Source: Phyllobates terribilis (lineage: Eukaryota). Taken from it: a stretch of DNA of 64,000 nucleotides. This document shows positions 13,657-57,941 of this stretch, one piece after another; within the stretch, counting starts at the first letter, position 1; each line of letters opens with the position of its first letter. The position numbers and the translations under genes are program-made. The stretch spans positions 222,084,001-222,148,000 of the forward strand of contig NW_027362765.1 of assembly GCF_046119375.1 (NCBI RefSeq), read 5' to 3'. Under the pieces are notes generated by a model. The model had not been told where the DNA came from and made no database searches. It was given only the letters and a program-made list of their open reading frames with translations.

Positions 13657-14380
13657 CCCCTTCATGACCGGAGCATTTTCCTTTTTTGTGTTTTAGTTTT
13701 TTGCTCCCCTTCTTTCCAGAGCCAGAACTTTTTTATTTTTTGTTCAATATGGCCATGTGAGGGCTTATTTTTCGCGGGGCGAGTTGTACTTTTAAACGAC
13801 ATCACTGGTTTTACCATATCGTGTACTGGAAAACGGGGAAAAAAATCCAAGTGGGGGGTGATTTAAACTTTTATATATTTTTTATATTTTTAAAAACATT
13901 TTTTTTTACACTTTTTGCTTGCTTCAATAGTCTCCATAGGAGACTAGAAGCAGCAATTACATGATCGCATCTGCTACATAGAGGAGATGAGCAGATAGCT
14001 TTTATGTAGTAGATATGCTCCTGTGCTATGAGCGCCAACCACTATGTGGTCATAGCAATCTTTACATGACAACCACAGGGGTCTGCTGCAGACTCCAGGT
14101 TGTCATGCCCACGCATCGGTGACCCGCGATCCATGGGCTGGGTAAGTGACGGGCTTCCGGCGCGGCACTGTTAAATGCCGCTGTCAGAGATTGACAGCGG
14201 CATTCAGCTAGTTAACAGCCGCGGGTGGATCGCGATTCCACCCGCTGCTGTTGCGGGCACATGTCAGCTGTATAAATCAGCTGACATGTGCCCTGTTCAG
14301 TGCGGGTTCAGTGCCGGAGCCCGTGCTGAACAGGGGGTGCCGATGTGGTGCGTACTATTACGTACCACATCGGAAAGAGG
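13657..14380. mobile_element. piggyBac-like non-autonomous element
   Basis: TTAA|CCCCTTCATGACC...CGGAAAGAGG|TTAA, with subterminal hairpin CGATGTGGT..ACCACATCG. Confidence 0.7.
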
Positions 14381-14695
14381 TTAAAATCACTTTTTCTTTA
14401 AATGGAATGCTGCTTTCATTTTTTAATTTTATATATATATATATATATAAAATTAAAAAATGAAAGCAGCATTCCATTTAAAGAAAAAGTGATTTTAACC
14501 TCTTTCCGATGTGGTACGTAATAGTACGCACCACATCGGCACCCCCTGTTCAGCACGGGCTCCGGCACTGAACCCGCACTGAACAGGGCACATGTCAGCT
14601 GATTTATACAGCTGACATGTGCCCGCAACAGCAGCGGGTGGAATCGCGATCCACCCGCGGCTGTTAACTAGCTGAATGCCGCTGTCAATCTCTGA
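14184..14695. repeat. Perfect spacerless palindrome, 2 x 256 bp, centred on (AT)9
   Basis: TCAGAGATTGACAGC...GCTGTCAATCTCTGA. No mismatch seen by eye. The ORF track gives identical peptides on both strands (14251-14463 + and 14416-14628 -). Confidence 0.95.
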
Positions 14696-14925: not shown

Positions 14926-16184
14926 TGTGGCGCCCCTGAGGGTTCAGTCGCCACAGAGGTACTGCACCTCACCCAGAGGTGTGGTGTCTCCTTTTCTCAG
15001 GTAAGGAGGGAGTGCTGCCCGGAACCCCAACACCTGCATCCAACATTACACTGCTCCAGGCCGGCTGGAAGGGCAAAATGCAATGTGTTTTCCTGCTGAG
15101 CCCTGTCCATGGCTGGAGTGGAGGGAACCCAGAGGTAGGGGGAACCAGTAGTGGGTGTGGGTGGAGGAAGCAGTTTAGGGGAGCACTATAGAAGGAGGCA
15201 TAAAATGGGAAGCCATTTTAGGGAGGTGAGAACAGTAGTGAGAGGACAGTTCAGAAGAACAGTCTGGGAGCAGAGTCTCAGTAGGAGCTCTGCTCCACAA
15301 CTAGGGCCTAGTGTCAGAGGCCCAGGAGGGGAGCAGGGAGTAGGCTCCGTTCTGTTGAAGGGATCCTCGGGGGTACGGTGAGTGCAGGACGTCACCCGTA
15401 CGCCCCGAATCTGTCAGAAGACAGAGGGATCGTAGGCCGCAAGAAGGGGACCGGCCCCTGGCCCAGTCGTGTACTTCAAGTCTCGGCTGGAAAAACCGAA
15501 GGCTCCTGGCTTATAAAGTCAGTTGCCGAAGCCTCGTTCTAATCCCCATGAGGGTCAAGCAGGTCTGTGAACTCCGACGGACAGGAGGGACTTCAGAGCA
15601 CCCGAGCAGGATTCAGAGTGGGGAAGCGCAGGGCAGGAGGGAGAAAGACCCAGCGTGAAGACGGTCTAGCTAGGAACACGAGAAAGTGGGGTTCTGTCAG
15701 GTACACCTAACCTGCCTGAGGAAGTGCTGAACCCCTGCCTGGTGAACGCAGCGCGGCGTGGGAGGCTGACACCTGTACAGTGCACCAGTGGAACTGTCAT
15801 AAGAACTGTGAGTAAAAAACTCGGATGATTGCACCGCACTGCCTCCGTCCATTCTTTAATCTGCACCATCGTTCCCTCTCTGCACTACAATGCCCAGCGC
15901 AACCACCATTTTCCTACACTGCCCTGGAGCTTGCTCTACCTGTGGAGAGCCACACCACCCCTGCTGCCGTAACACCAGCTCCAGAGGACTGCTCAGCAGC
16001 GGCGTCTCCTTTTGGCCGCAATCCACAGGTGGCATCACGAACAATCCCAAAAACCCCATATAAAAGTACCCCCCTTTGCACTGACCGCCCTGGGTCACGG
16101 ACCGGGCCAGCCACCGTCATACTCCCCTACCGGCATACACAGAGGCCCGGCTGCCGAGTACCCCATGGCCCTGGGGGCGCGTCA
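14926..16184 (+). mobile_element. Solo LTR A (1259 bp), long-LTR Gypsy family
   Basis: TGTGGCGCCCC...GGGGGCGCGTCA with 4-bp TSD CAAT. Removing it restores the Tc1 5' UTR. Same terminal motifs as 47660 and 48735. Confidence 0.88.
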
Positions 16185-17666: not shown

Positions 17667-20600
17667 TGTTATGATCTGCAACATAAACTAAGGAAAGATA
17701 GGGAAAACTGTCCCTACAGTAAGACTAAGCTGAATCCCTACGATGTAGCGGGCAGCCTGTTCCTTGTGAACAGACCTGCCTTCGTCCTCGGTTAGTCTGA
17801 ACGGAGACTTATAGAATAAAGGGAGGGGTCCCTAAAGAACTAAGGACTGGGACAAAAATGGGACACCTCCTAACAGAAGTTGTTGCAGAGCAAAAAGACA
17901 AACTGACAAAAAGTACTAGAGGTCCCAGAGGACCAAGCAAACTAGACAGAGATAGGCACCGAAACACCTGGCTAGAGAGACAGGCAAAAAACACTGAAGT
18001 CCAGCAAAGCCAGAAGGGCGGAGCTGGAATATATAGGCAGCTGGTCACGTGACCGCAAAACACAAGATAGCAAAAAGTAACAGGAGGGTTCTAACAGTAC
18101 CCCCTCTTCTATGAGGATCCTCCAGATCCTCCAGGCCCAGGCCTATCAGGAAACCTCCTGTGAAAAGCTTTAACAAGCCTAGGAGCAGAGACATCATCCG
18201 TCCTTACCCAGGAGTTGTCTTCGGGACCGAAACCCTTCTAGGAGACAAGATACTGTAATATCCCTCTATGCCATCTTGAATTCAAAATACGAGAAATTTC
18301 ATATTCACCGTCTTCCACCACAGGAGGAACTGTGACAGTGGCGTCCCTATTAGAAACGTCAGCCTTTTTCAACAAGGAAACATGAAACACAGAATTAATC
18401 TTTGAGGAAGTAGGGACATCCAACCTGACAGCAGATGAGTTAACAACCTGAAGCACTTTAAATGGACCCACAAACTTAGGACCCAGTTTTTTAGAGGGAA
18501 TCCTCAACCGCAAGTTCTTCAAGGACAACCAAACCATGTCACCCACAGTAAACAAAACCTCTTTACGTTTCCTGTCAAAATACTTCTTGGACTTCTTGTT
18601 AGCCTCTTGAAGGTTACAACGTACATTAGTCCAAACTCTCTCCAAATCACCGGAAAAATTCTCCTCCTCCGGTACCGCCGACCCCAATTTGGAAAACGAA
18701 CCAAAAGACGGATGTCTCCCAGTGCAACAAAAAAAAGGAGAACACCCAGCAGAGGAGGATGTATGATTGTTAAGAGCAAATTCTGCGAGAGGCAGAAACT
18801 CAGATCACACCTCTTGATTGTCCGCCACAAAACAACGCAAAAACTGTTCAGCATCCTGGTTCTTTCTTTCAGTCTGTCCATTAGACTCAGGATGATAACC
18901 AGACGAAAATGACAAATTGACTCCCAACCTGTCACAAAAAGCACACCAAAAGCGAGCCACAAACTGAGGTCCTCTATCAGAAACAATATCCGTGGGAATG
19001 CCATGGAGCTTGACAATCTCCTTAACAAACGCCTTAGCGAGTGTCTTGGCGCAGGGCAACTTAATGAATGGAACCAAATGACGCATCTTACTAAAACGGT
19101 CTACGACCACCCAGATGACAGTAAAACCCTCAGACACTGGAAGATCAGTAATAAAATCCATTGTGAGATGCGTCCAAGTCGCACTAGGAACCTCCAGAGG
19201 GCAAAGCAACCCCGCAGCAGGAGTATGTGAAGCCTTTGACCTAGCACACACCTTACATTAACGCACCCACTTGATGACTTCCTTCTGCCATCCAGGCCAC
19301 CAAAAACTGAGACTGATAAGTCTCTTAGTCTCCGAGACTCATGACACTCCACAAACAAATCTCTCCTAAAGGCTCTAGGCACGAACAACCTCCCATGGGG
19401 AGTGTTAGATGGAGCATCATCTTGAGCATTCAGAATCCCATTCTCCAAATCGGAGTCCAATGCCGCCACCACAACTCCTTTCTGCAAAATGCTTTCCTCC
19501 TCCTCGGCACCGACCGTAGGAGAGAAGCTGCGAGATAAAGCATCGGCTTTAACATTCTTAGTACCAGGGATATAGGTAACAGAAAAATGAAACCGAGGAA
19601 AAAAAAGTGCCCACCTAGCTTGACGGGCATTCAAGCGCTTGGCAGCATCCAGATAGATCAAATTCTTATGATCTGTGAAAACCTGAATAGGAAATCTAGC
19701 GCCTTCCAAAAAATGACGCCAGTGTTCAAACGCAAGTTTAATAGCCAGCAACTCCCGATTTCCAACATCATAATTCAGTTCGGTTTCTGAAAATTTTTTC
19801 GAAAAGAAGGCACAAGGATGTACTCCACCCTTGTTCTCCTGAGATAAAACTGCTCCGACCCCCACCGATGAAGCATCGACCTCGACCAAAAAAGGTTTGG
19901 TCTCATCAGGCTGTATAAGGATAGGGGCAGTACTGAACCTCTCTTTGAGATACTCAAACGCTTCAGTGGCTTCAGTAGTCCACTGGGCCGTATTCGCACC
20001 TTTCCTGGTGAGATCGGTAAGAGGTTTAACAATTACAGAAAAATTCTTAATGAATTTCCTGTAATAATTGACAAAACCCAAAAACCTCTGTATAGATTTC
20101 AAACCAATAGGCCTAGGCCATTCCTGCACAGCCTGAACCTTCACAGGGTCAATCTCAAAGCCCTCGCTGGAGACAATGTAGCCCAAAAAAACTAATTTTC
20201 TGCACAGCGAACTCACATTTCTCCAGCTTAGTAAAGAGTGAATTGTCACTCAATAACTGCAAAACTTCACGTACACTCTGCCAATGGGACTCTAGATCTG
20301 GTGAATAAATCAAAATGTCATCCAAATACACAACCACATTCTTACCAATCAAAGGTCTCAGGATATCATTAATAAGGTTCTGAAAAAATGCAGGTGCATT
20401 GGTAAGACCGAAGGGCATCACCAGATTCTCAAAATGACCTACCAGAGTGTTAAAAGCAGTTTTCCATCCATCACCCTCCTTCACACGTAACAAATTGTAT
20501 GCCCCTCGGAGATCAATTTTTGAGAACCACTTAGCTCCCACTAACTGGTTAAACAAGTCAGGAATTAATGGCAATGGGTAGGAATTGCGTACGGTAATCT

Positions 20601-22638
20601 TATTAATTTCACGAAAATCCAGACATGGACGTAAACCACAGTCCTTTTTTTTAACAAAGAAGAATCCGACTGCCACAGGCGACTTAGAAGGTCTAATGTG
20701 ACCAGCAGCCAGGCTAGTCTCTATGTACTCCTCCAAGGCCTTTCTTTCAGGGATAGTCAGATTAAACAAGCGACTTTTGGGAAGAGTAGCACCTGGAACA
20801 AACTCAATGGCGCAATCATAATCCCTATGAGGAGGTAAAACTTGCGACTCCTCCTCTGAAAAAACCCTCCAAAAATCTTGAATAGGTACTGGTAATTCCC
20901 CTTTTTCCACAGCTGCAATGCGACCATTACAACATTTATCATAGCACTTCGGACTCCAAGACTTAATCACATTAGTAGACCAGTCCAACAAAGGATTGTG
21001 CAGTTTTAACCAAGGCAATCCTAGAACAACTGGAGAGGGCAAATTATCCAAAACAACCAAGTCCAAAATTTCTTGGTGATCTCCATTGATAGTGAGAGGA
21101 AATGCAGCAGTCTTGTGAGTAATACATTTCAAAGGAATGTTATCAATTGCAACCACAGAAATAGGAGATGACTAACGTTTGGATTTCAATTTAAGTTTTT
21201 CCAAAAACCCTTTATCAATCACATTAAGTGTTGAACCACAATCCACAAATACCTGAAATTCAATCAAATCTCCCTGCAGAGTAGTACACCCAGAAAGGAA
21301 CACTCCTGCAGAGCGTAAACAAGCTATACGGGCGTAACTGACCTTTTTTTTTTTTCTTTAATTAAACGACACTCACAATACTTAATCAAATGATCAGCTT
21401 TACCACAATAAAGACACAAACCTTCGGCGAATCTCCGATCTTTTTCTTGAGAGCGGAGTGACATTGCCCCAACCTCCATTGGTTCTCCGCTGTCACAGCA
21501 GATTTTCTGGAAACTAGGACCTGAAGTTACAGGAGTTTTTACATCATTGACCCTGGACCTTATTCTCCTGTCCACACGAACAGCTAACTGCATAGCTTCC
21601 TGAAGAGTCTCAGGTGCAGGGAATGCAATTAGCAAATCCTTAACCCTTTCACTCAGACCAGCAAGAAATAAACTTTTCAGCGCCGAATCATTCCACTTAA
21701 CTTCTGAAGCCCATCTCCTGAAGTGTGTGCAATAAATTTCAAAATCATCTGACCCCTGATTCAAACATCTAAGTTCTGATTCAGCAGATGAGATTCGATC
21801 AGGATCGTCATATAATAGCCCATAGCAGAAAAAAATTCCTCAACAGAACTTAAACACGGATCATTAGGTTGGAGAGAAAAGGCCCACCCCTGTGGTCCTT
21901 TGCGCAAAAGTGACATAATAAAACCAATGCGCTGTGATTCATTCCCAGAGGACCTCGGTCTCAAACGAAAATATAACAAACAAGCATTTTTAAAGGAAAA
22001 AAAATCTTGCTGTTTACCATAAAAAATATCAGGCAGTCCTACCTTCGGTTCCACAAAATGCGCTCCAGGACAGCTACTCACGTGTTGCTGAAGCTTGGCC
22101 ACCTCCAGAGACAATCCCTGCAGGCGTTGAACCAACTCCTGGATGGAAACCATATTGATCCCCGAATTTCTTTCCTTTTAGTTTTTTTTTTTTTTTTGGG
22201 GCTGGACTTACTGTTATGATCTGCAACATAAACTAAGGAAAGAATAGGAAAAGCTGTCCCTACAGTAAGACTAAACTGAATCCCTACGATGTAGCGGGCA
22301 GCCTGTTCCTTGTGAACAGACCCGCCTTCGTCCTCGGCTAGTCTGAACGGAGACCTATAGAATAAAGGGAGGGGTCCCTAAAGAACTAAGGACTGGGACA
22401 AAAATGGGACACCTCCTAACAGAAGTTGTTGCAGAGCAAAAAGACAAACTACTAGTACTAGAGGTCCCAGAGGACCAAGCAAACTAGACAGAGATAGGCA
22501 CCGAAGCACCTGGCTAGAGAGACAGGCAAAAAACACTGAAGTCCAGCAAAGCCAGAAGGGCGGAGCTGGAATATATAGGCAGCTGGTCACGTGACCGCAA
22601 AACACAAGATAGCAAAAACTAACAGGAGGGTTCTAACA
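17667..22638 (-). mobile_element. Full-length Ty3/Gypsy chromovirus (Tf1/sushi group), degraded
   Basis: LTRs 17667-18096 and 22212-22638 (about a dozen differences including small indels), 5-bp TSD GATAT, PPT AGAAGAGGGGGTAC next to the 3' LTR. Confidence 0.97.
18109..22153 (-). pseudogene. gag-pol: gag-pol (Gag, CCHC knuckle, protease, RT, RNase H, integrase, chromodomain), several frameshifts and stops
   Basis: ORF pieces contain [75 protein letters not shown]. Confidence 0.95.
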
Positions 22639-24481: not shown

Positions 24482-24854
24482 CATTGTATATCTACTTTCT
24501 AGCTAGCCTGTGCTCTGTGTCTTGCTCTGTTAGTTTGCTTGGTCTACTGACCTCTATGTTCTATATATTTTGTTTGTTCGTCTGTCTGCTACTATTTCTG
24601 TTAGGAGGTGTCCCATATTCCTCCCAGTCCTTAGTACTTGTAGGGATTCCTTCCCCACATCTATAGGTCTCCGTACAGACTAGCTTAGGACTTTAGCAGG
24701 TCTGATCGCAGGATCAGGTTCCCTGTTACATCGTAGGGATTAAGCTGAGTTCTATCGTAGGGACAGATCTCCTCTCTTTCCTTAGCTCTGGTAGCAGAAT
24801 ATAACAGTAAGTCCAGCCAGCAAATTCTCTAAGGAAAGATTTTTCTGTTCCATC

Positions 24855-27800
24855 ATGGTGTCGGTTCAGGATTTGGTTCATCGCCTGCAGGGACTCTCTC
24901 TGGAGGTGGCCGAGCTCCGTCAGCACGTGAGTAACTGTCCTGGAGCACATTTCTTGGAGCCTAAGGTATGTTTGCCGGATTTATTTTTTGGTGAACACCG
25001 AGAATTTTTTTCATTTAAAAATGCTTGCTTATTGTATTTTCGTTTGAGACCTAAGTCCTCTGGGGATGAATCCCAGCGCGTAGGGTTCATAATGTCACTT
25101 TTGCGCAAAGAGCCTCAGGAGTGGGCCTTTTCTTTGCAACCTAGTGATACATGCTTCAGATCAGTGGATAGTTTTTTTTCTGCTTTGGGACTATTATATG
25201 ATGATCCTGACCGTGTCGCATCAGCTGAGACTGAGTTGAGACGTTTAAAACAGGGATCAGGTAATGTGGAAAAATATTGTACTCATTTCCGTCGTTGGTC
25301 TACTCAAACAGGGTGGAACGATTCTGCTCTGAAAAGTCTATTTCTTGCTGGGCTCAGTGAAAGGGTTAAAGACCTGCTAATTGCTTATCCTACACCTGAA
25401 GATTTGCAACAGGCTATGCAATTAGCTATACGGGTGGATAGAAGACTGCGTGCAAGGGTTAATGAGAGCAAATCCTCTGCTATGTCAGTTTCTGGTTATG
25501 AGAATGTGTGTACTAACAGTGGTGAACCGATGGAGATTGGATCGGTGGCACCTCGCTCTCAAGAAAAAGACCGTCGATTTTCTGAAGGCTTGTGTTTCTA
25601 TTGCGGAAAATCTGGTCATTTGATTAAAGGTTGTGAGCTTCGTATGAAGAAAGAAAAAAAAAAGGTCAGTCACGCCCGTATTGCCTGTTTAAATTCCAAG
25701 GGTATATTTTTAGCTGCTTCCACGATTGCTCAGAAAAAATTAATGGAATTTCGGGTTTTTGTTGATTGCGGGTCTACTCTGAATGTAATTGATGGGGGAT
25801 TCGTGGAAAGACTCAATTTACAACCTGAACCTTTATCATCCCCCATTGCTGTGGTTTCTGTGGATGGTTCCCCTTTGAAGAATATTACTCTCAAGGTCTG
25901 TGAATTTCCTCTCACTATTAATGGTGTTCACCATGAGAAATTGGATTTGGTAGTGTTGAATAACTTGCCTTCTCCAGTAATATTGGGATTGCCCTGGTTA
26001 AAATTTCACAATCCTGTACTGGATTGGTCTACCAGTGAAATTAAATCCTGGAGCCATAAATGTTATGACAAGTGTTGTAACGGGCGTATTGCAGCTTTGG
26101 ATAGGGGAGAATTGCCTGTTCCTATTCAGGATTTTTGGAGAGTTTTTTTCTGAGAAGGAATCGCAGGTTTTGCCTCCCCATAGAGACTATGATTGTTCTA
26201 TTGAATTTGTCCCTGGAGCGACTCTTCCTAAAAGTCGTTTATTTAACCTTACTATTCCTGAGAGGAAGGCTTTGGAGGAATACATACAGACAAGTTTGGC
26301 CGCCGGTCACATTAGGCCCTCTAAGTCTCCTGTGGCGGTTGCATTTTTTTTTGTAAAAAAAAAGGACGGCGGTTTACGTCCTTGTCTGGATTTTCGTGAG
26401 ATTAACAAAATTACTGTACGCAATCCTTACCCACTGCCATTGATTCCTGATCTGTTTAACCAGTTAATGGGGGCCAAGTGGTTCTCTAAAATTGACCTTA
26501 AGGGGGCATACAATCTGTTGCGCATGAAGGAGGGTGACGAATGGAAGACTGCTTTTAACACTCCTGTGGGTCATTTTGAGAATCTGGTTATGCCTTTTGG
26601 TCTTACTAATGCTCTGCATTTTTTCAGAATCTGATTAATGACATCCTTAGACCTTTGATCGGCAAAAATGTGGTTGTGTATTTGGATGACATTTTGATTT
26701 ATTCGCCGGATCTGGAGTCTCATTGGCGGAGCGTGCGTGAGGTATTACAGTTATTAATGGACAATTTGCTTTTTGCTAAGCTGGAGAAATGTGAGTTCGC
26801 TGTACAGAGAATTCGTTTTTTGGGCTACATTATCTCCAGCAAAGGTTTTGAGATGGATCCGGTTAAGGTTCAGGCTGTGCAGGAATGGCCTAGGCCTATT
26901 GGTTTGAAATCGATACAGAGGTTTTTGGGTTTCGCCAATTACTACAGAAAATTCATAAAAAATTTTTCTAGTATTGTCAAACCTCTGACTGATCTCACCA
27001 GGAAAGGTGCTGATGCGGTTCAGTGGTCTTCTGAGGCCATTGAAGCTTTTGTGTATCTCAAGGAGAGGTTCACCTCTGCTCCCATCCTTATGCAGCCTGA
27101 TGTTACTAGGCCGTTTTTGGTTGAGGTTGATGCTTCCTCTGTGGGGGTTGGCGCAGTATTGTCTCAGGATAACGGGGATGGATTACATCCCTGTGCCTTT
27201 TTTTCAAAAAAATTTTCGGAGACTGAACTGAATTACGATATTGGTAATCGGGAATTATTGGCTATTAAACTCGCATTTGAACACTGGCGCCACTTCTTGG
27301 AAGGTGCGGAATTTCCCGTTCAGGTTCTTACGGATCATAAAAATCTGATATATCTTGATGCTGCCAAGCGCCTGAATGCCCGTCAGGCTAGGTGGGCACT
27401 GTTTTTCTCGCGGTTTAATTTCTCCGTTACTTACATCCCTGGTACTAAGAATGTTAAGGCGGATGCCTTGTCTCGCAGTTTTTCTCCCATAGTCGGTGCT
27501 GAGAAAGAGGAGAACATTTTACAAGAAGGTGTTGTGATAGCTGCTTTGGACTCCGTTTTGGAAAATGAGATTCTTAAAGCACAGGAGAATGCCCCTTCTA
27601 ACACTCCTCATGGGAGGTTGTTTGTGCCTGGGACCTTTAGGAGAGATTTGTTTGTTGAGTGTCACGAATCTCGGTTGGCAGGTCATCCCGGAATCTCTGA
27701 GACCAAGAGACTGGTGGGTCGCAGTTTTTGGTGGCCTGGATGGCAGAAGGAAGTCATTAAGTGGGTGCGTCAATGTACTATATGTGCTAGATCTAAGTCC

Positions 27801-28922
27801 TCACATACTCCTGCTGCGGGGTTGCTTTGTCCTTTGGAGGTTCCCAGTGCTCCTTGGACACATTTGGCTATGGACTTTATAACTGACCTTCCCCCCTCTG
27901 AGGGTTTTACTGTCATCTGGGTGGTCGTGGACCGTTTTAGCAAGATGTGTCACTTGGTTCCCTTTGTCAAACTGCCCTGCGCTAAAACTCTCGCTAAGGC
28001 CTTTGTCAAGGAAATTGTCAGACTTCATGGCGTTCCTACTGACATTGTTTCTGATAGGGGTCCTCAGTTCGTGGCTCGTTTTTGGCGTGCCTTTTGTGAC
28101 AGGTTGGGAGTTCATTTATCGTTCTCGTCCGGATATCATCCTGAATCTAATGGCCAGACAGAAAGGAAAAACCAGGATGTTGAGCAGTTCTTGCGTTGTT
28201 TTGTGGCAGACAATCAAGAGGGGTGGTCTGAGTTTCTGCCACTTGCTGAATTTGCTCTGAACAATCATACATCTTCTTCTGCTGGTTGTTCGCCTTTTTT
28301 TTGTTGTTCTGGGAGACATCCGTCGTTTGGGTCGTTCTCCAAGTTGGGATCTGCCGTGCCTGAGGAGGAGAATTTTTCCGGTGATTTGGAGAGAGTTTGG
28401 ACGGATGTGCGTGGTAATCTTCAGGAGGCCAACAGAAAATCTAAGGACTACTTTGATAGGAAACGACAGGAGGTTTTGTCCGCTGTTGGTGACATGGTTT
28501 GGTTGTCCTCTAGGAATCTGCGGTTGAGGATTCCTTCTAAGAAATTGGGTCCCAAGTTTGTAGGGCCCTTTAAGGTGCTTCAGGTTGTCAACCAATCTGC
28601 TGTTAGGTTGGAGGTTCCTACCTCCTGGAGAATTAATCCGGTATTTCATGTCTCTCTGTTGAAAAGAGCTGTTGTATCGGATTGTGACGCCTCTGCCTCT
28701 GTTCCTTCGGTGGTGGAGGACGGGGAATATGAAATTTCTCGCATCCTTAACTCTAGACTGTATAGAGGTAGTTTGCAGTATCTTGTGGCCTGGAAAGGTT
28801 TCGGACCCGAGGATAACTCTTGGGTGAGGTCGGATGATGTTTCCGCGTCCAGACTTATCAGAGCGTTTCACAGGAGATTTCCTGATAAGCCTGGTCCTAG
28901 GGGATCCGGAGGATCCTCTTAG
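24855..28922 (+). CDS. gag-pol: Single gag-pol polyprotein (~1355 aa if repaired) with two compensating 1-nt indels in RT
   Basis: RTL1/PEG10-like Gag, [14 protein letters not shown], protease [12 protein letters not shown], RNase H, HHCC plus DDE integrase, GPF motif, chromodomain [33 protein letters not shown]. 24855 and 26655 share a frame; only ~26150-26615 is shifted. Confidence 0.9.
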
Positions 28923-29826
28923 AAGGGGGGGTACTGTTAGAACCTTGCTCTTAGGTTTTTTTTCCTTTGCTGGTCACATGACCTTGTTGGCCTATTTAAG
29001 CCTGCTCCGCCCTTCTGGCTTTGCTGGACTTCATTGTATATCTACTTTCTAGCTAGCCTGTGCTCTGTGTCTTGCTCTGTTAGTTTGCTTGGTCTACTGA
29101 CCTCTATGTTCTATATATTTTGTTTGTTCGTCTGTCTGCTACTATTTCTGTTAGGAGGTGTCCCATATTCCTCCCAGTCCTTAGTACTTGTAGGGATTCC
29201 TTCCCCACATCTATAGGTCTCCGTACAGACTAGCTTAGGACTTTAGCAGGTCTGATCGCAGGATCAGGTTCCCTGTTACATCGTAGGGATTAAGCTGAGT
29301 TCTATCGTAGGGACAGATCTCCTCTCTTTCCTTAGCTCTGGTAGCAGAATATAACAGGTTCACCACTGTTCCATGTTTTTGCCATTTGTGAATAATGACT
29401 CTCCCTGTGGTTTGTTGGAGTCCCAAAGCTTTAGAAATGGCATTGTAACCTTGTCCATACTGATAGATCTCAATTACTTTGTTTCTCATTTGCTCCTGAA
29501 TTTCTTTGGATTGCAGCATGATGTCTAGCTTTTGAGGATCTTTTGGTGTATTGCACGTGGTCAGGCAGGTCCTATTTAAGTGATTTCTTGATTGAGAAGA
29601 GGTGTGGCAGTAATCAGGCCTGTGTATGGCTATGTAAATTTAACTCCGGTTCCCACCACAGTTAAATTATGTTTTAAGTGGGAAGGGGGGGAATCACTTT
29701 TTCACCCTGTAGGTTTGCATTTCTTTTTCCCTTACCTACATTTGTTTTTTGATCTGAAACATTTAAGTGTAACAAACAGGCGAAAGAATAAGAAATCAGG
29801 AAGGGGCATACACTTTTTCACACCAT

Positions 29827-46800: not shown

Positions 46801-49800
46801 ATGGAAGTTTAATTCCAGTTGGAATTAAAAAAATCCAGACTAAGGTCCTCTATAAGGAAACATGTAATTCAAGGAAAGTTCCTCTTGCCCTACTTGGTGC
46901 CTTTTACAAGGTTATGGAATTACCATTATTAGCATCTCTAACAAAATTTTCCTGTTCTGTGTGAATAGAACAGGTTCAGAGTCCTAGACGCTTTATCAGA
47001 GTGAGCAGTCAGATCTAAGGGACAGGGGCAGACTTGGTAGATACTGGACAGAAGGAATGTCTGGAATCTGAGGGGGAGAGGTCAGGAGGAGGAGAACTGT
47101 GTCTCACTGATGTTTACAATAGATTACACTGTGAACTCTTTCTACATAATAATATATTCCCATAGTCAAGAGCTGGGATTTACAGATTGCCTTGCAAATT
47201 ATAGCCTATTACATTTTTTTTTCCAATCTATGAAAGCAAGCTCTGCCAAGTGTGTGTACCACTATGTGTGCACGTCTAGTTTTAGAAAAACTTTTTGAGT
47301 GAGGGTGAATTCCCACAATGCAGATTTTATTCCAGAAATGTATGTAACTGAAAAACAATTCAGTTAGTCTGGATAGGGTTTGTTTCAGATGAACTGGACG
47401 GGTGCCGAACTATCTGCAACAAAATCCACAGCAAATCTGCAAAGTGTAACCCCCCCCACTGATCATTGCAATCCACAGCAAATCCGCAGTGTGAACCCCC
47501 CACTGATTGTGGCAGAAAAGGTCAGCTGATCACTATGCCCCCTAGGGTGCTTTCACACTGCATTTTGGCACCCGTTCGTTGGTCCCATCGGGCTTACATA
47601 AGAACCCCTTGCAAAACGGCATTCAAGCATATGTGCCGCCTGGGATATAGACTGTAATTTGTGGCGCCCCTGAGGGTTCAGTCGCCACAGGGATACTGCA
47701 CCTCAGATAGAGGTGTGGTATCTCCTCTTCCAGGTAAGGATGGAGCATCTCACAGGACCCCACTTCACCATTCAACACTACACTACTCCTGTCCTGAAGG
47801 GGGCCTAAAGGCACTAGGGTGCTGCCCCACCCGGGATAGAGGAGATAGGGGGAACCAAAGATTGTGGGAACCATGTAGTGGGTGAGGGTGGAGGACACAC
47901 TTTTAGGAAACACTTATTCATTCATATTTAATCTACGGCCATCTTAGGTTCAAGGTCTTTGATTGAGGGTCTTCTGTCAGGGTCCAGCAAGAGGCTGTAG
48001 CTGGCGGAAGGTTTGCGGTCCTCGTACTCTGGCCTTGAGACGAGGAGTGGGTCAGAGTTAACCACTGTCTCTACCCGGTCAAGGTCCTGACCTAAGAAGG
48101 CCTTGGAGGGGAGCGGAGGAGATAGGCTCCACAGGCAAAAGGATCCCAGGGGGATACGGACGGAGCGGAGTCGCCACCTGTATTCTTTACTCTGGCCTAG
48201 CCAGAGGGATTCCTGCTGCAAGAGGGGTAATCAGCCCCCGATATCTGACTTTGTTACTTCACGTCTCAGTCAGAAAAGCCCGGAGGCTTAGTGGATCCCA
48301 GGGGGATACGGACGGAGCGGCCTACGCCACCTGTATCTCTTAAACTGCGTTTATCCAGTGGGACCCAGCCTTACACCACGTTCATACCACACGCAGTCAG
48401 GAGAAGACTTAGTGGGAGAACTTACCAAGGAGAGGAATACACACCAGAGGGGTCTCGACAGGTGCTCCTGATCTACCTGGGAAGTGCTGAACCCCCTTCC
48501 CGGTGGCCGCAGTACGCTGTGTGTAGCAGAGGGAAACTTTGCGGCTGAAAGTTCATCTGAAGTGAGTAAAGACCCAGATGACTTCATACACATCCTCAGC
48601 TCGTTATTTCCTGCGCGGCACTGCACCCACCATTCCTTCTCACACTGCCCTGAGGCCTGCTCCGCCTGTGGGGAGCCGTCCCATCTTAGCTGCCCCTAAC
48701 ACCAGCCTCAGTGGACTGTAGCAGCGCAGGAGTCTGACGCACCCCCTGGGCCTGTGCTGCTGCTGCTGTGCAGGGGGAATACCCGGAGCCGGATCACTGG
48801 GGGTTGTAGTTCTCCGTGGCGGTGACCCGGTCCGTGCCCAGGGTGGTCAAACCAGTGGCAGTCTAAATGTTGTAATAAGTGTCCGACTACGCCACCCGTG
48901 GATTGCGGTCAGTGGGGACCGCCGCTGCGCTGCCGACCGCTGAGGCTGATGTTGGTTGCGCAGCCGAGTATGGGATAACTCCCCACGGGAGAAGTATTGC
49001 CTCAGGGCAGCTAAGGTGGAAGATGATGGGAGTAATGGTGTGAGCGTCCCAGCACTAATGGTGCTGGTGCGGCAAGGAATCACAGAGACGTGTGGTGCAG
49101 TTCAGGGTCTTTACTGATGGTACAAGGCAGACCCTCCCGGGAGTACTGGCTAGTATAAGGGGCCTGGTCAGTCTGCGAGCAAGCAGGAGTTCCCCTGGCC
49201 AGGTGGAGTTGTAGGCCTCCCCGTTTATCTGCACTCTTCCTGGCTACCTTGCTGTCAGCGGTTACAAGTAGCCCACGTCCCTGAGTATACCGTGTGGTGC
49301 TCACCCGTATGGCTGGTGACTTGGGGCCTTCTGTTAGCCTCCGCTCCTGGATGGCGGCGCTGGTCCCTTCTCTGTGACTGAGCCTTCGGGCTTCTATGGC
49401 CAGAGGACCTGGAATCCCCTGCCGGCTGGTTTCTGCTGCTGGGTGAATATTAGTCCCCACAGCCTCGGACTCCTGTGTCCGGCTTTAGTATCTTCGTCCA
49501 GGGCGAACTCTGCTCAGCTCCAGCCCCTGGACTTCTGCTACTGCTCCTCCAGAGCTCCTGATCTTACTTTCCCTCTCCAGACTCTGACTCTGTCTGCAGC
49601 TTCACTCTGACTCTGTCTGCTCTAATCCCGCCCCAGACCCAGTTTAAAAGGGCAGATTCCTCCCCTCCCAGGTCTGGGTGGACCGTGTTGCATGCTTAGG
49701 GATCCTGACCAGAGAAACCTCCCACTTGCTCTCAGACATAATATCTCTATTACTGTGGCAACCAGACCCCTGGGGTGTCACATTCCCCCCTAGTAAATTT

Positions 49801-50258
49801 TAGTACTCCGGGACTAAACACATTTTCTTTTTTTAAAGAAACATAAATACAAGGTATAACAATAACAAGACAACATATTTACAAGAAGCTTTAGTCTGTA
49901 GAGGTCACGGCGTTTCCGTGACCGGGTGTCCATATCACCCAACAAGGCGAAGTCTTGGCACAGAATAGGGGACCTGTCCAAAGCAAACCCCTTGCGTTGT
50001 CCTTGGGCGTGGCTGCAAGGGTAGACTAACTACTTTGGGCCGCAAGGAGGCCACGCCAGACAGGTTTTCTCTTCTGCGGCCGTCTTCGCAAGAGGCACCA
50101 AGGTGCAACTATCTACAAAACTGTTCCGGTTATCCAGTGTCCATAACCTGTTAGTCCAAATAAATCTGCAGGGTAACTGAGAAACATAATTAGTAACAGG
50201 CAACAAACATAAACCATAAACATTTTTCAATAAACAGTCAACTTTACAATGCACTGGT

Positions 50259-53200
50259 TTAGATTCTCCAGCGAGCGGGCATCTGACCTTTAGTGACTCT
50301 AGTGGACCTACGGAGCTCACTAACTGGTTCTGCACTACAGGGTGTAGGAGGTGTTATGGGCAAGCTGGGCAGCTTTCTGCGCACTCTTTGGCTCACTAGG
50401 GGCACGGCAGGCTCACTACTAGCAGAGGGTTGATCCTCCTGTACTGCTGGTGTGGACTCTTCTGCCTCTTGGGCCGGCTGCTCTTCCAGCTCTACCGGTT
50501 CCTCTGTAGGCACTTGCGGGGCTGGCTGGAGAAAGGTGAGGACGGGTACCACGACAGCGCCGTTTACTTGTGTCCAAGACCGGGGGAAGTCTCCGAGTAC
50601 GGTACTGATCATTTCTTCCCTTTCCTCTGCGGGTTGAGGGTTTTCTTGATCTTCTTCAGGGCTTTGCAGCTGCTCGGGACACTTCTTCAGGTGGTCTCTG
50701 GAGACAATGGCTGTGGTTTCTCCTCCATCCTTACTGATTACGCAGATTTTTGGGTTCTCATGGCTTGATGGCAGTACGGTGTACGGGTCCTTCTCCCACT
50801 GGTCGTCCAACTTGTGGAGCCGCCTCTTCCTCTTCAAGACCTGCTCTCCAGGTACCAGGGGAACAGCGGGAGCATACTGGTTATAAGCCTTCTCTTGCCT
50901 TTCTCTAGCTTGAGACAGACTTCGCTCGACGCTTTCCTGTACTTTCCGATACTGCTGCTGCCGTTCTGTATCCCAGTCTGCCTCTGGCGAGGTGTCCTCA
51001 GGTGTCAGGACTCCCATATCCAGGTCGATAGGCAGCTTACCAGGTCTTGCTCTCATTAGGTAAGCCGGGGTACAGTTGGTGGAACCTACAGGGATGTGGT
51101 TATACAGGTCCACCAGATCGGGCAGTTTCTCAGGCCACAGACTGCGTTCTTCCAGGGGCAATGTTTTTAGCAGATCTATCACCACCTGGTTCATCTTCTC
51201 ACAGAGTCCATTGGTTTGAGGGTGATAGGGCGTTGTTCTTATCTTCTTGCAGCCATACAGGTTGCAGAACTCCTGGAAGACCTCCGCTTCGAAGGCTGGT
51301 CCTTGGTCTGTCAACACTTGGTCCGGATACCCGTGTGGACGGCAGAAGTGCTGCTGGAAGGCTCTAGCTGCTGTTTGAGCCGTTAAGTCCTTGACCGGGA
51401 CCACCACCAGGAACCGGGAGTAATGATCTACGATTGTGATGGCGTAGACATACCCAGATCTGCTTGGAGCCAGTTTCACATGGTCCAGGGCTACCAGTTC
51501 CAGTGGCTGTCTGGTGATGATGGGCTGCAGGGGAGTCTTCTGGCTGGCACGGTCTTTTCTTCTCAGGTGGCACGGGCCACAGTCTCTGCACCACCTCTCG
51601 ATGGCTCCTCTCATGCCTACCCAGTAGAACCGTTCACGCAACAAGAACTCCAGCTTCTTCCATCCGAAATGCCCCGCTCCGTTGTGGTATGCCTCCAGAA
51701 TCATAGCCGCGTCTCGTCTTGGGACCACTACCTGCCAGGTCAACTCATGTGTTCGAGAGTTAACCATTCTCCGGCACAGCTTCTCCCTGTAGAGGAACAG
51801 CTTACTTTTCTCCTTCCACAGTTGCTTGGTCTCCTCCGGAGCGTCTGGGTCAAGACTGGCATCGGCCTGGGTCAGCATTTCTTTCACCAAACGGACTGCG
51901 GGATCACTGTCTTGCGTCTCCGCCCAGTTGTAGTGGGGCAAGGGATTGAACGTCACGGAGCGCCTGTCCTTCACACGGTGGGAATACAGGGTAATCCCAT
52001 GACGGTGGAACGCAGGGAGCTCAACTTCTTCCAGATTTTCTGGATCTTCCCCTACGTCCGGTAAGTTCGGCATTCTAGACAGGGCATCCGCATTGGCATT
52101 TGATCGTCCTGCCCGGTATTTGATGGTGAATTCAAAGTTGGACAGGCGGGCCATCCATCTCTGTTCCAGGGCACCGAGCCTTGCAGTGTCCAGGTGTGTC
52201 AACGGGTTGTTATCCGTGTACACGGTGAATTTGGAGGAGGCAAGGTAATGCTTGAAACATTCGGTCACTGCCCACACTACTGCCAGGAACTCCAGCTTGA
52301 ATGAGCTATAATTCTCAGGGTTCCTCTCAGTGGGCCGTAGCTTTCAGGTGGCGTAAGCGATTACCCGTTCTTTCCCTTGCTGGATCTGGGACAGTACGGC
52401 TCCTAGCCCGATGTTGCTTGCGTCCGTGTGGAGGATAAAGGGCTGGCTGTAGTCTGGATATGCCAGGATTTCATCCCCCGTGATGGCCATCTTCAGCTGG
52501 CAGAAGGACTCCTCTTCCAGCTTTTCCCACCTAAAGGGCGGCTTCTGGTTTTTGGCTTTCCGAGATTGACCTATCAGGAGGTCCTGCATAGGGGCTGCCA
52601 TTTTGGTGAAACCGGGAATGAATCTTCGGTAGTAGCCTACCAACCCGAGGAACTGCCGCACTTCCTTTATGCTGGAGGGTCTTGGCCAGTCCTTAATCAC
52701 AGTGATCTTATCAGGGTCGGGAGCCACTCCGTCAGCACTCACCACGTGTCCCAGGTACTGCACCTTTGGTTTCAGGAGGTGACACTTGGAGGGTTTCACC
52801 TTTAGGCCGTAGTTTGCCAGAGCTTCGAACACTTCTGCCAGGTGTCTCAGGTGGTCCTCGTAGGTCTTGGAATAGACGATGACATCGTCCAGGTATAACA
52901 GGACCGTCTCGAAGTTCCGGTGTCCCAGACAGCATTCCATCAACCGTTGGAAGGTTCCTGGTGCGTTGCAGAGCCCGAACGGCATGCAGTTAAATTCACT
53001 GAGACCCATCGGGGTGGTGAATGCGGTCTTCTCCCGGTCCGCCTCTGCTACAGGAACCTGCCAGTACCCGCTAGTGAGATCCAAAGTAGAGAAGAAGTTA
53101 GCAGATTTTAACGCAGCCAAGGACTCTTCTATCCTTGGTAACGGGTACGCATCTTTGTGTGTGATACGGTTGACCTTCCTGTAGTCTACACACATTCTCA

Positions 53201-54395
53201 TGGTGTTGTCTTTCTTTTTCACTAAGACTAGTGGAGCTGCCCAGGGGCTACAGCTGTCCCTGATTACCCCAGCCTCCTTCATGTCTCTAAGCATCCCCTT
53301 GGCGTGTTGGTAGTGTGCCGGGGGTACGGGTCGGTATCTCTCCTTTATGGGAGGATGGTCTCCCGTGGGGATGTGGTGTTCTACCCCCTTTACTCGCCCG
53401 AAGTCTAGCGGGTGTTTACTAAACACTCTCTCGTACTCTCGAACCACCCAATAGACTCCCTGTTTCTGGTGTGAGGGAGTGGAGTCAGTACCCAAATGCA
53501 GTTGCTGACACCAGTCCTCCATTAGTTTCTTAGAGCCGTTACCTTCCTCTGGTTGAGATGGAGGCAAGGGTTCCACGGCCTGTACAGAATTCTGGTTTAT
53601 GGTGAACAATTTGGCTAGCGTGGCATACCGGGGCAGGTATACTTCTCTCTCCCCGATATTTATGATGCGAACGGGCACCCTCCCATGGCGTACATCGACC
53701 ACCCCCCGTGCTGTCAAAATGGTGGGCCTACTGTCTGAGTAGACGGGTTCTACCATTGCTTGGTAGTCTCTACCTCTTAGACCAATAGCTGCCCGGCACC
53801 AAATCATCATCTCACTTTTTGGGGGCATGGCAATAGGGAACGGGTCACACATTCTCACGCTACCTATCTCACCACCAGATAGTTCCACCTGTTGCCGCTT
53901 CATCAGTGCCCGGATCTCTTTTTGGAGCACACGCTGCTGGCCGAAACTGGCGTTCTTGGCAACCTGCTGTAAAATGAGAATCACCTCTGCAAGACAATTT
54001 TCAATCACATTAGTTCCCAAGGTTATTCTAGGGTGACTCTCATGACGGTCTATGTCCACTATTATCAGTCCTTGTGCCGCCAGTTCGACTTTACCGATCT
54101 TAATGGTCACCTCTTTGAATCCCACCTGCGGCATGGGCTGACCATTGCTGGCGATGATACTCAGGTCGTCATTTGGGTAGCGGGTTATGTCCGAGTCATT
54201 CCAGTACTGCTTGAAGAGCACGTACGGGATGGTGGTCACCTGTGACCCAGTGTCTAGTAGGGCACTCATAGGAATGCCATCCAGTACCACAGGCAAGATT
54301 GGACGTCCCCCTACGTATTTATCACGCCAGTTTGATGGGCCTGATGGTCTTATGCCTGGGGGTTGGCCCTCTACCCCAGGTTGTGCCCGTTTAAA
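50259..54395 (-). CDS. pol: pol (protease, RT, RNase H, integrase) with one in-frame TGA at 52344-52346
   Basis: LLDTGSQVT, YLDDVIVYS, HTDASNIGLGAVL, HNGAGHFG..CRDCGPC, ALDHVK..LTDQGPAFE..GLCEK. The two ORFs are in frame across IAYAT*KLRPTERNPENYSSFKLEFLAVVWAVTE. Confidence 0.92.
54337..54395 (-). promoter_or_regulatory. Predicted -1 ribosomal frameshift signal
   Basis: U UUA AAC in the gag frame, 8-nt spacer, stem CCUGGGG/CCCCAGG, loop GGGCC pairing with downstream GGCCC. Confidence 0.75.
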
Positions 54396-55354
54396 TGACA
54401 GTACCTTGCCACATGTCCGGGTTGATTGCAGCGGCGGCAGATGGGTCGTCCGTCCTCGTTGTACCTGTCGCTGGGTCTTCCTCTGGCCGGTGGGGTCCTC
54501 CTCAGTCGGCGCCACGGGACGTCCTCCGGTCCGGATGCCAGCTGGATCTTTCCTGGAGAAGAGACCTGTAAAGACTGCACAATTCTGGTCAGCGCGGCAA
54601 CGCTCTTAGTCAGCTCTTGGACCTGATGGTGCAGGTCTGTAGCCGGGTCACTGTTTAAAGCCTTCACATCAGCTCCCACAGGCCCTGCAGACAAGGGCGC
54701 CGTCTCCTGGTGGTAAGTGATAGCAGGGCGCCTGTGGGTCACAGCGCCACCTGGTGCCGGTTCTCGGAGCACCCGGATGGCTCTGTCCTTGAACTGTGCA
54801 AAGTCCAGGTCAGGGTCCTGTAAGGCCATTGCCCGCAACTGGGTTCGGTGGGCATTGCACAGTAGACCCTCAATAAATTGTTCAGTCAACAGCTTATCTT
54901 CATTTCCCACGCTGTCAGGGTCTGCCTGCTTAATGGCTCTCAGGGCCTCTTGTAGGTTTAGAGCATAGTCTCTTATACTCTCATGTGCCCGTTGTTTGCA
55001 CCCATAAAATCTCAGTTTTATTTCGGCTGAGGTGCGGGTATCAAATGTGTCTTTCAGCCGGGTTAGTATGTCTCTGACAGTCCTCTTCCTCCCAGGTGGC
55101 CAGGACTTTACCTCCCTTTGGGCTGCCCCGATTAATTGGGCCACCAGGATGCTCACTTTTTGCTCTTCTGTGAGGGGGTACACCTGGAAGAGGCTATCCA
55201 GTCTTTCTCTAAAGTCATTTAGAGTATGTGACTCCCCTGAGTACTGGGGTAGCCAGGTTGCCCCCGGGATATAGGGCATGGTGAATGGCATGACTGCTGC
55301 AGCGGTTGCGCTGGCGGTGGCTGTGGCAGTGGAGCTCCCCTCGGTATCCGGCAT
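54371..55354 (-). CDS. gag: gag (PNMA-like capsid, CCHC zinc knuckle), 327 aa
   Basis: Open ORF between PBS and pol. PYIPGATWLPQYSG and CRRCNQPGHVARYC. Confidence 0.88.
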   Translation of the reverse strand: MPDTEGSSTATATASATAAAVMPFTMPYIPGATWLPQYSGESHTLNDFRERLDSLFQVYPLTEEQKVSILVAQLIGAAQREVKSWPPGRKRTVRDILTRLKDTFDTRTSAEIKLRFYGCKQRAHESIRDYALNLQEALRAIKQADPDSVGNEDKLLTEQFIEGLLCNAHRTQLRAMALQDPDLDFAQFKDRAIRVLREPAPGGAVTHRRPAITYHQETAPLSAGPVGADVKALNSDPATDLHHQVQELTKSVAALTRIVQSLQVSSPGKIQLASGPEDVPWRRLRRTPPARGRPSDRYNEDGRPICRRCNQPGHVARYCHLNGHNLG

Positions 55355-55780
55355 CCTCCTCCCCCCTAGTGGACCGTGGCCTACCTTGTGATGCTCTTCG
55401 TCCGTAGGCCGCGGCTCCGCAGTCGATCGTCGGGGTTGAGGACCTGGCGTCGCGCTCCGATGACGTCAGCGTCGCTCTTCCTCCCTTCCAGGACCTTGCG
55501 CAGCGTCAGAGCGTGGGGCGGAGCTTCGGATCTCGCGCGCTTTCGGCGTCCACGCCCCTCTTCTTCCCGTGCGGCGTCCCGAAGATGGCGTCCGAAGGCG
55601 GGAAGCAGCTGCGGATGGCGGGAAGAAGGCAGAAGACGGCGGGAAACGGTCCAAGATGGTGTCTGATGGCGGGAATCGGCTCCGGATGGCGGGAAACGAC
55701 TCCGGACGGTGGGAAACTTCACCACAGGTAAGTATAAAAGTCTTTTTCAGGCATGCAGTACCCGGTGGTTGCGGGCACGA

Positions 55781-55799
55781 AATCCTGCCGACTACGCCA
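55781..55799 (-). promoter_or_regulatory. Primer binding site, tRNA-Ser (AGA/TGA type)
   Basis: TGGCGTAGTCGGCAGGATT is complementary to the vertebrate tRNA-Ser 3' end AATCCTGCCGACTACG-CCA (recalled sequence). Lies 4 nt from the 5' LTR. Confidence 0.88.
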
Positions 55800-57941
55800 A
55801 AGTTGACGCGCCCCCTGGGCCTGTGCTGCTGCTGCTGTGCAGGGGGAATACCCGGAGCCGGATCGCTGGGGGTTGTAGTTCTCCGTGGCGGTGAACCGGT
55901 CCGTGCCCAGGGTGGTCAAACCAGTGGCAATCTAAATGTTGTAATAAGTGTCCGACTACGCCACCCGTGGATTGCGGTCAGTGGGGACCGCCGCTGCGCT
56001 GCCGACCGCTGAGGCTGATGTTGGTTGCGCAGCCGAGTATGGGATAACTCCCCACGGGAGAAGTATTGCCTCAGGGCAGCTAAGGTGGAAGATGATGGGA
56101 GTGATGGTGTGAGCGTCCCAGTACTAATGGTGCTGGTGCGGCAAGGAATCACAGAGACGTGTGGTGCAGTTCAGGGTCTTTACTGATGGTACAAGGCAAA
56201 CCCTCCCGGGAGTACTGGCTAGTATAAGGGGCCTGGTCAGTCTGCGAGCAAGCAGGAGTTCCCCTGGCCAGGTGGAGTTGTAGGCCTCCCCGTTTATCTG
56301 CACTCTTCCTGGCTACCTTGCTGTCAGCGGTTACAAGTAGCCCACGTCCCTGAGTATACCGTGTGGTGCTCACCCATATGGCTGGTGACTTGGGGCCTTC
56401 TGTTAGCCTCCGCTCCTGGATGGCGGCGCTGGTCCCTTCTCTGTGACTGAGCCTCCGGGCTTCTATGGCCAGAGGACCTGGAATCCCCTGCCGGCTGGTT
56501 TCTGCTGCTGGGTGAATATTAGTCCCCACAGCCTCGGACTCCTGTGTCCGGCTTTAGTATCTTCGTCCAGGGCGAACTCTGCTCAGCTCCAGCCCCTGGA
56601 CTTCTGCTACTGCTCCTCCAGAGCTCCTGATCTTACTTTCCCTCTCCAGACTCTGACTCTGTCTGCAGCTTCACTCTGACTCTGTCTGCTCTAATCCCAC
56701 CCCAGACCCAGTTTAAAAGGGCAGATTCCTCCCCTCCCAGGTCTGGGCGGACCGTGTTGCATGCTTAGGGATCTTGACCAGAGAAACCTCCCACTTGCTC
56801 TCAGACATAATATCTCTATTACTGTTGCAACCAGACCCCTGGGGTGTCACAAGTCCATCACCAGAAACCACAGGTGGTGTAGTCGAAATACCACTCATCC
56901 TTGAAAGCCCAATACCTTCTTTTTATTGATGCAGCCCTGGGCACGGACCTTGTTGAGGCCACGACTGCATCCCCCCCGCGACCCCTACACTGACCCGGCT
57001 CCGAGTAACCCCACCGCTCAGGGAGGGCTGTGCGCCCCACATAATGGTGGTGACAGAGTGAACGTGTGCATCATTTTTGGGCGTATATGCCTACTGTAGG
57101 CGGACACCAAGTCGTAGTAGACTGCGTCTGGGTGTCCGTCTCCAGTAAGCGTACACTCCTGAAAATGATGCACGACGGAGCACACTATCACTTTGTCAGC
57201 ACCATTATAGTCTACGGCCCAGTCACATATGCCAAAATCCCATTTTGCAGTGGGTTCTGACATAACCCCCACGGGACCAAAGAATGGGTGCCAAAACGCA
57301 GTGTGAAAGCTCCTTTAGGCTGTGTTCAGCTCTGCTTGGCTCTCCGTAGAGATGCAAAAGCCCCCCCCCCCAATCAGCATTATATTCACATTGGCCAACA
57401 ATCTAATGTGCATGGGGACCCTGGACAGATGATTGTGCAGGTGGGTTAATGATCCAAATTCGGACTGCTGATCCTTTTGTTCTACCTTTGATAAGCTGCT
57501 GTCAGAGCGAATGCTCTTGTACATAGAAGAGACGGCCTAGATAGTTGTCGGCAGACTGAATGGCCGAACCATTGTTTGTCATGTCAGGTTTATGGGAGGG
57601 TTAACAGTGCAGTTGCAATCAAAACTTCTGCTATTTTACTATGGTATGTCAAAAGTTTTCTAAACTGGATGTTCACATTAAGCACTCACTAAATATAACT
57701 ATTAGCACAAATGCTAAAAGTATGCAATTTGGGGCAGTTTTAGAAGATCCAAATAATCAAGCCATGTTTTCAATGAAGTGTCACATGTCTTATGTCTAAT
57801 GCATTATTTTACAGATTGTTCAAGGACAATGAAGAGCGCAGTGCAGTGTTTAGGGCAAATCGACAAAAATAATGGTTTTCTAAAGTCAGACGAGAATGTA
57901 ACCTGAGGCAATGAGCTCATCAAATAGTTTCATAGTTTTTA

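Follow-up and report, generated by a model that had tools for sequence, protein, structure and literature searches.

The LTRs of a large group of retroelements in the genome of the frog Phyllobates terribilis contain a same-sense repeat, 10-13 nt long, of the first bases of the element's own primer-binding site (PBS), and this repeat is conserved across divergent families. This internal motif is real, widespread and probably functional. Judged from its sequence characteristics, it may well constitute a selected docking site for tRNA that does not itself prime reverse transcription, a reading that we hold with moderate confidence.

Three related LTRs and their primer tRNAs

The window, i.e., the whole stretch of 64,000 nucleotides that was analysed, stems from a genome of 10.6 Gb, to which all genome-wide counts given below refer. 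It contains three related LTRs, solo LTR A, the LTR of the full element B and the split solo LTR C (Table 1), each with a PBS-like motif 154-167 nt ahead of the LTR end. These LTRs and their relatives constitute a PNMA-type Ty3/gypsy group. The features expected for Ty3/gypsy elements, i.e., TG...CA LTRs, a target duplication, a PBS and a polypurine tract, are present, and in element B gag is followed by protease, RT, RNase H and integrase, in the order typical of such elements. The gag proteins closest to that of element B are named from poison frogs. According to the accessible text of PMC11011659, PNMA-related Ty3/gypsy elements (Metaviridae) from amphibians, reptiles and fish share the PNMA-type gag and the protease-RT-RNase H-integrase order with element B, and no LTR-internal tRNA site is described for them in that text.

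Table 1. Positions of LTRs, element parts, motifs and predicted RNA features in the window
Feature	Position	Strand	Remarks
Solo LTR A, tRNA-Ser(CGA)-primed family	14926..16184	+	TG...CA, flanking 4-bp duplication CAAT
Candidate poly(A) signal AGTAAA, LTR A	15811..15816	+	
Predicted helix 5' strand, LTR A	15939..15946	+	CCTGTGGA
Predicted helix 3' strand, LTR A	16022..16029	+	TCCACAGG, last base directly precedes motif
Internal PBS-like motif, LTR A	16030..16043	+	13/14 complementary to 3' end of tRNA-Ser(CGA)
Solo LTR C, interrupted by element B	47660..57041	+	halves 47660-48730 and 56856-57041
Internal motif, LTR C, AGA type	56875..56885	+	
Element B, full-length Ty3/gypsy copy	48735..56851	-	LTRs 98.8% identical, 4-bp duplication
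3' LTR of element B	48735..49782	-	
Internal motif, B 3' LTR	48883..48894	-	helix partner 48982-48989
pol frame of element B	50259..54605	-	protease, RT, RNase H, integrase; in-frame stop
gag of element B	54371..55354	-	PNMA + Retrotrans_gag domains
True PBS of element B, tRNA-Ser(AGA/TGA)	55783..55799	-	4 nt past LTR end
5' LTR of element B	55804..56851	-	
Internal motif, B 5' LTR, 12 nt, tRNA-Ser(AGA/TGA) type	55952..55963	-	helix partner 56051-56058

The letters that an earlier note had quoted from LTR A are found at 16016-16043; the tRNA-like part begins at 16030 and the LTR ends at 16184, a distance of 154 nt. In complete agreement with that note, the first 18 nt are identical at 17 of 18 positions to the LTR at 48735, from which LTR A is otherwise divergent (~66% identity over aligned columns; ~57% for shuffled sequence). 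The 14-nt lead-in to the motif has three matches in the window vs. 0.47 expected. The only mismatch to the tRNA had been put down to decay of a CpG, and indeed 28 of 30 LTR-A copies have G at that position. The tRNA named in that note is represented by a tRNA-Ser(CGA) gene with the matching 3' end (L098:1444-1525), and a tRNA-Ser(CGA) PBS was found in all four of the 30 LTR-A loci that have a PBS downstream. The other motif type matches tRNA-Ser(AGA/TGA), for which 25 gene-like matches (22 AGA and 3 TGA) exist; a tRNA scan called tRNA-Ser(AGA) in both loci of this kind that it covered.

With regard to genomic arrangement, 22 tRNA-Ser(AGA/TGA) gene-like copies are clustered at G000:C3 ~7.0-9.3 Mb, while six scanned loci yielded one tRNA-Ser(CGA) gene; AGA-primed families are ~14 times more numerous. 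The first matches to a tRNA pattern were ruled out as tRNA genes, none of six loci containing a tRNA, and turned out to be extended PBSs. Three of eight matches (L097, L100, L144) feature an over-long tRNA-Ser(CGA) copy that abuts the LTR end, extends well past 18 nt and includes the CCA that is absent from the gene, which points to mature tRNA-Ser(CGA) as the primer. These over-long PBSs apparently reflect read-through of the usual stop. One single-base variant of the AGA-type PBS, e.g., in L104-L132, dominates the 214 variant junctions, judged from the matches listed, and may reflect a tRNA isodecoder. An Rfam scan of the window for ribozymes or known RNA families gave no match.

LTR A is inserted into a stretch that is repeated elsewhere in the window and that we take to be a Tc1-type element. 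In LTR-A elements the LTRs are ~3.4 kb apart, and the family appears to be non-autonomous, because three of five such stretches searched for gag and pol of element B gave no match. Just upstream of the element hosting LTR A, a perfect palindrome with 258-nt arms is located at 14184-14695, and a long inverted pair (18072-22186 / 24822-28959, 73-87% identity) probably represents one element present twice in opposite orientation. Family C normally has a PBS of the AGA type. Element B is inserted in LTR C ~20 nt upstream of the C motif, between the helix strands (48731-48734 / 56852-56855). In addition, LTR C contains a duplicated 47-nt unit (48141-48187, 48293-48341) that includes the complement of the helix-motif junction, a feature that is not general in other families. 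Dozens of family-C PBS junctions in a single orientation at G000:C1 ~438.8-440.4 Mb indicate a large tandem or segmental array.

Conservation of the motif and co-variation with the PBS

Conservation was assessed for 49 family representatives (24 AGA, 25 CGA) that had been picked by their PBS alone. Motif positions 1-10 are identical to the own PBS in 23-24 of the 24 AGA families and positions 1-13 in 22-25 of the 25 CGA families (17 at the CpG position), the values for the first bases being partly favoured by the method used for locating the motif and those for the tRNA-specific positions less so. At positions 15-16 a match to the own PBS occurs in 0-3, and the longest contiguous match comprises 14 nt. 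The conserved part corresponds approximately to the CCA tail, the discriminator base and the acceptor strand. In most families CA is present 4 nt ahead of the motif, as at the true LTR end. A canonical PBS comprises ~18 nt of tRNA complement at the LTR end; the motif reaches at most 14 nt and is located 88-218 nt upstream of the true PBS. Like a second tRNA site it is complementary to the primer tRNA, but such a site would pair with a different part of the tRNA, whereas motif and PBS match the same 3'-terminal bases.

The proposal that the internal motif co-varies with the primer tRNA is borne out genome-wide. Counting exact patterns with a motif-PBS spacing of 125-165 nt, the types of motif and PBS agree in 54,610 pairs (50,896 AGA/AGA and 3,714 CGA/CGA) and disagree in four (one AGA motif with a CGA PBS, three CGA motifs with an AGA PBS), figures that refer to copies, not independent events, and overstate independence. 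Among 136 LTR-PBS junction entries, which include a few places counted twice, 83 are AGA/AGA and 45 CGA/CGA, none is discordant, two are ambiguous and six are without motif. Two further discordant copies occur outside the exact pattern, giving a total of six, all of which group in the clade of their motif type; this placement suggests that each resulted from an isolated priming event with the other tRNA.

The number of switches was derived from trees built on the flanks, with the letters of motif and PBS excluded. A quick tree of the 49 representatives needs two changes of motif/PBS type, a careful tree of the same set minus four long-branch rows needs one, and with 71 typed representatives well-supported branches force two, trees with one change appearing in 0 of 200 bootstraps. 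On the other hand, a single origin (69 rows) remains acceptable for the region as a whole (AU p 0.43), its upstream part (0.25) and the motif-to-PBS stretch (0.82), while the leader alone rejects it (AU p 0.0002, 69 rows). Recombination moving a U5-PBS block would explain this conflict between leader and U5. Several independent switches in the frog, as suggested by the trees with two changes, are therefore not secured, as the AU tests do not reject one origin; one co-switch is secure and a second is possible. With the U5 region compatible with one origin, linkage over ~150 nt may account for much of the concordance.

The earlier note had seen in the co-variation an argument for function or for repeated renewal from the primer. 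The first part stands, being favoured by the conservation of the motif and by the adjoining helix described below, while renewal in each cycle does not, because the family motif persists in mis-primed copies, whose variant PBS was taken from another tRNA. The motif is thus inherited with the lineage and not from the primer. The six discordant copies kept the family motif and yet integrated, and this integration counts against docking. The motif context is joined to a full PBS at just three sites (L134, L135, L288). In L134 and L135 the motif-to-PBS stretch is missing and the motif is joined straight to the leader; the 3' LTRs of both were sought and not found. In L288 (duplication TCCA) four changes within five bases extend the motif of the 5' LTR, which also has a large deletion, to a full PBS, and the 3' LTR retains the family motif. 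This overwrite is compatible with plus-strand synthesis having switched templates to the tRNA and would provide a route for retuning the motif. A search of the B-type context for LTRs ending at the motif found none; at one site in this context the motif is missing after the helix, which is due to a small deletion.

The adjoining helix and candidate pairing partners

The motif is directly preceded by a predicted helix of 7-9 bp, whose other strand is located ~90 nt upstream. All seven of seven pairs are present in 57 of 71 representatives vs. 46 of 2130 control offsets. Compensatory pairs occur (T-A in 34 and C-G in 20 at one position, G-C in 48 and T-A in 8 at another), and G-U pairs are tolerated. 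Two observations are counted against docking: RNAalifold with 44 rows predicted pairing of motif bases with the leader instead of the 7-bp helix, and in local folds motif positions 1-5 are mostly engaged in intramolecular pairs.

A poly(A)-like hexamer precedes the motif by 150-300 nt in 65 of 71 representatives and is situated between motif and PBS in six, which suggests that the motif lies in U5. Transcript starts or ends of the element were not obtained from the contigs examined, and a search for poly(A)-tailed genomic copies that would map cleavage gave three matches, equalling the control level, with two homopolymer slips. In LTRs A (15808-15816) and C (48562-48570), the candidate poly(A) signal shares bases with a splice-donor-like GTGAGT, which could, by analogy, suppress polyadenylation in the 5' LTR. 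Furthermore, the LTR end can fold back on the first six PBS bases with a 4-nt loop in 43-44 of 44 rows (element B: 55794-55809, minus strand), and the true PBS may thus be partly masked.

The predicted duplex of the motif with the own tRNA amounts to -21 to -22 kcal/mol compared with -9 to -14 kcal/mol for the other tRNA, the predicted PBS:tRNA duplex reaching -33 to -35 kcal/mol. Neither LTR plus leader nor 11 longer element copies contain a conserved antisense partner, the best match in the latter being 9 of 11 at differing places, and swapped motif types gave no consistent advantage for the own type. A weak downstream hairpin partner, likewise counted against docking, exists in 15 of 24 AGA representatives (mean -13.5 vs. 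-11.0 for shuffled sequences) and beats shuffles in just 4 of 25 CGA representatives. A type-specific antisense partner inside the element was dismissed, the weak hairpin being confined to part of the AGA clade. Since an antisense partner was not found and the cognate duplex is the stronger one, the tRNA 3' end or its DNA equivalent would be the simplest partner of the type-specific bases.

Relatives from other hosts offer a further view. We screened 79 metagenome loci with a related RT, seven of which have a tRNA-Ser-type PBS, and found the motif in three of these seven (RT identity 51-53%), namely with 10 nt at 37 nt upstream of the PBS in L196, 12 nt at 63 nt in L223 and 11 nt at 73 nt in L221. 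The latter has a third PBS type that is tracked by the motif at one base, a match that comprises one element and one base. An abutting helix of 7-8 bp is present in L196 and L223, while L221 is cut by the contig end. The other four tRNA-Ser-primed relatives are without the motif, L198 among them offering just 119 nt upstream; the motif is thus dispensable elsewhere, which is counted against docking. It is also absent from the eight elements with other PBSs that were examined. In the tree, L196, L223 and L221 group together, separately from the frog clade, and the sister group of the latter is without the motif, so the module of helix and motif is either old, with losses, or convergent. Viral contigs yielded eight pattern matches, all without gag or pol, and two distant RT loci.

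Proposed docking of the primer tRNA, alternatives and known systems

As a docking site, the motif would be located in U5 and hence be confined to the RNA's 5' end. The tRNA's 3' end would base-pair to the motif, stacking on the adjoining helix, and this stacking would stabilise the short duplex and hinder extension from the motif. The primer would be captured or enriched there and then passed to the stronger 18-nt PBS; alternatively, a second tRNA could be held at the motif. Once the primer has changed, rare copying from tRNA or PBS would adapt the motif. In the antiterminator of T-boxes, the CCA end of the tRNA pairs with UGG and stacks on a neighbouring helix. By analogy, helix and tRNA-tail complement in vertebrate gypsy LTRs could trap uncharged tRNA, block priming, hand the tRNA to the PBS and lock a family to one isodecoder, an elaboration that we offer tentatively and consider rather unlikely. 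T-boxes differ in that they are bacterial, form four base pairs and need a stem that reads the anticodon; the likeness is one of analogy alone.

Of the alternatives, it is unlikely that the motif is a linked relic, i.e., a PBS copy that originated a single time, experienced one or two overwrites and was kept for RNA structure or an unrelated role without tRNA binding. Such a relic agrees with a single origin not being rejected for U5, with L288 as proof that overwriting can occur, with the weak hairpin partner in AGA families and with the existence of relatives without the motif. However, the tRNA-specific positions are near-invariant while the following bases drift, the hairpin partner is missing in CGA families (4/25 beat shuffles), and motif and helix recur in distant elements at other spacings (37-73 nt). 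A role at the DNA level, in which the minus-strand copy of the PBS, identical in its letters to the tRNA 3' end, docks on the motif in plus strong-stop DNA and aids or times the second strand transfer, appears quite unlikely, too. It predicts the same co-variation, the motif-leader joins in L134 and L135 are the product expected from mis-annealing, and the overwrite in L288 is confined to the 5' LTR, but just two joined products occur among >54,000 pairs, which may simply stem from deletion at microhomologies, and the tolerance of G-U pairs in the helix suits RNA.

In miRNA-like targeting, the 5' end of a fragment acts as the seed. It is very unlikely that the motif serves as a decoy or regulatory target of 3' tRNA fragments, or that it senses free tRNA-Ser and thereby adjusts how well the element RNA is translated or how stable it is, because the motif misses the 5' end of the 18-nt fragment and its predicted duplex is much weaker than that of the PBS, although the motif matches the same tRNA end and 3' tRNA fragments repress LTR elements via the PBS, as stated in the available part of PMC12853362. 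Use of the motif as an alternative priming site, or its rewriting from the primer in every cycle, is largely refuted and hardly credible: the CA ahead of the motif resembles a true LTR end and one overwrite was seen in L288, but both the variant-PBS copies and the six discordant copies keep the family motif and the B-type context yielded no LTR that ends at the motif, although LTRs of this kind may be unable to integrate, and per-cycle renewal and productive internal priming were both rejected.

The proposed docking site can be compared with several known systems. In Tf1-type self-priming, the PBS is complementary to a stretch of the element's own RNA. This mode was discarded for the frog elements, as the motif is same-sense and without a conserved antisense copy and the long tRNA copies at the PBS indicate tRNA priming. 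Closer at hand is Drosophila Gypsy, likewise a Ty3/gypsy element with an extra site for its primer tRNA. In the accessible portion of the report by Gabus et al. (2006, PMC1635307), this second tRNA-Lys,2 site of 11 nt near the 3' end of the RNA pairs with the anticodon and TΨC stems, is dispensable for cDNA synthesis and allows one tRNA to bridge both sites. In contrast, frog motif and PBS pair with the same tRNA 3' end at a distance of 88-218 nt, so that two tRNAs or a hand-off would be needed. Ty3 also features primer contacts beyond the 5' PBS. As far as the available text of PMC11381356 goes, the parts of its bipartite PBS reside at opposite ends of the RNA, together form one priming site and are proposed to aid cyclisation and dimerisation, whereas the true PBS of the frog elements is complete at 17-18 nt and the extra site duplicates its start. 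In HIV-1, too, sequences near the PBS contact the primer, albeit avoiding the tRNA 3' end: according to the part of PMC3185550 at hand, the tRNA bound at the PBS is contacted in its anticodon or TΨC arm, through pairing with the A-rich loop or the primer activation signal, and changing the A-rich loop along with the PBS allowed stable use of other tRNAs. Within these accounts, the auxiliary contacts of Drosophila Gypsy, Ty3 and HIV-1 thus all use other parts of the tRNA, and the frog site differs. A duplicated, second or additional PBS of this kind is not described in the literature searched, with subscription journals, Repbase notes and supplements lying outside that search, and the words 'PBS' and 'tRNA' are absent from the main text of a survey of frog LTRs (PMC4131045).

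For annotation, the motif means that PBS finders can call a false PBS inside such LTRs. Even for HIV, there is continuing debate on how an LTR element chooses one primer tRNA and loads it. The frog families make a natural experiment available, as they comprise two types of primer along with rare copies in which motif and PBS are mismatched and a single overwritten one. A PBS copy of the same sense and limited length, directly next to a co-varying helix, would represent a different solution to primer loading.
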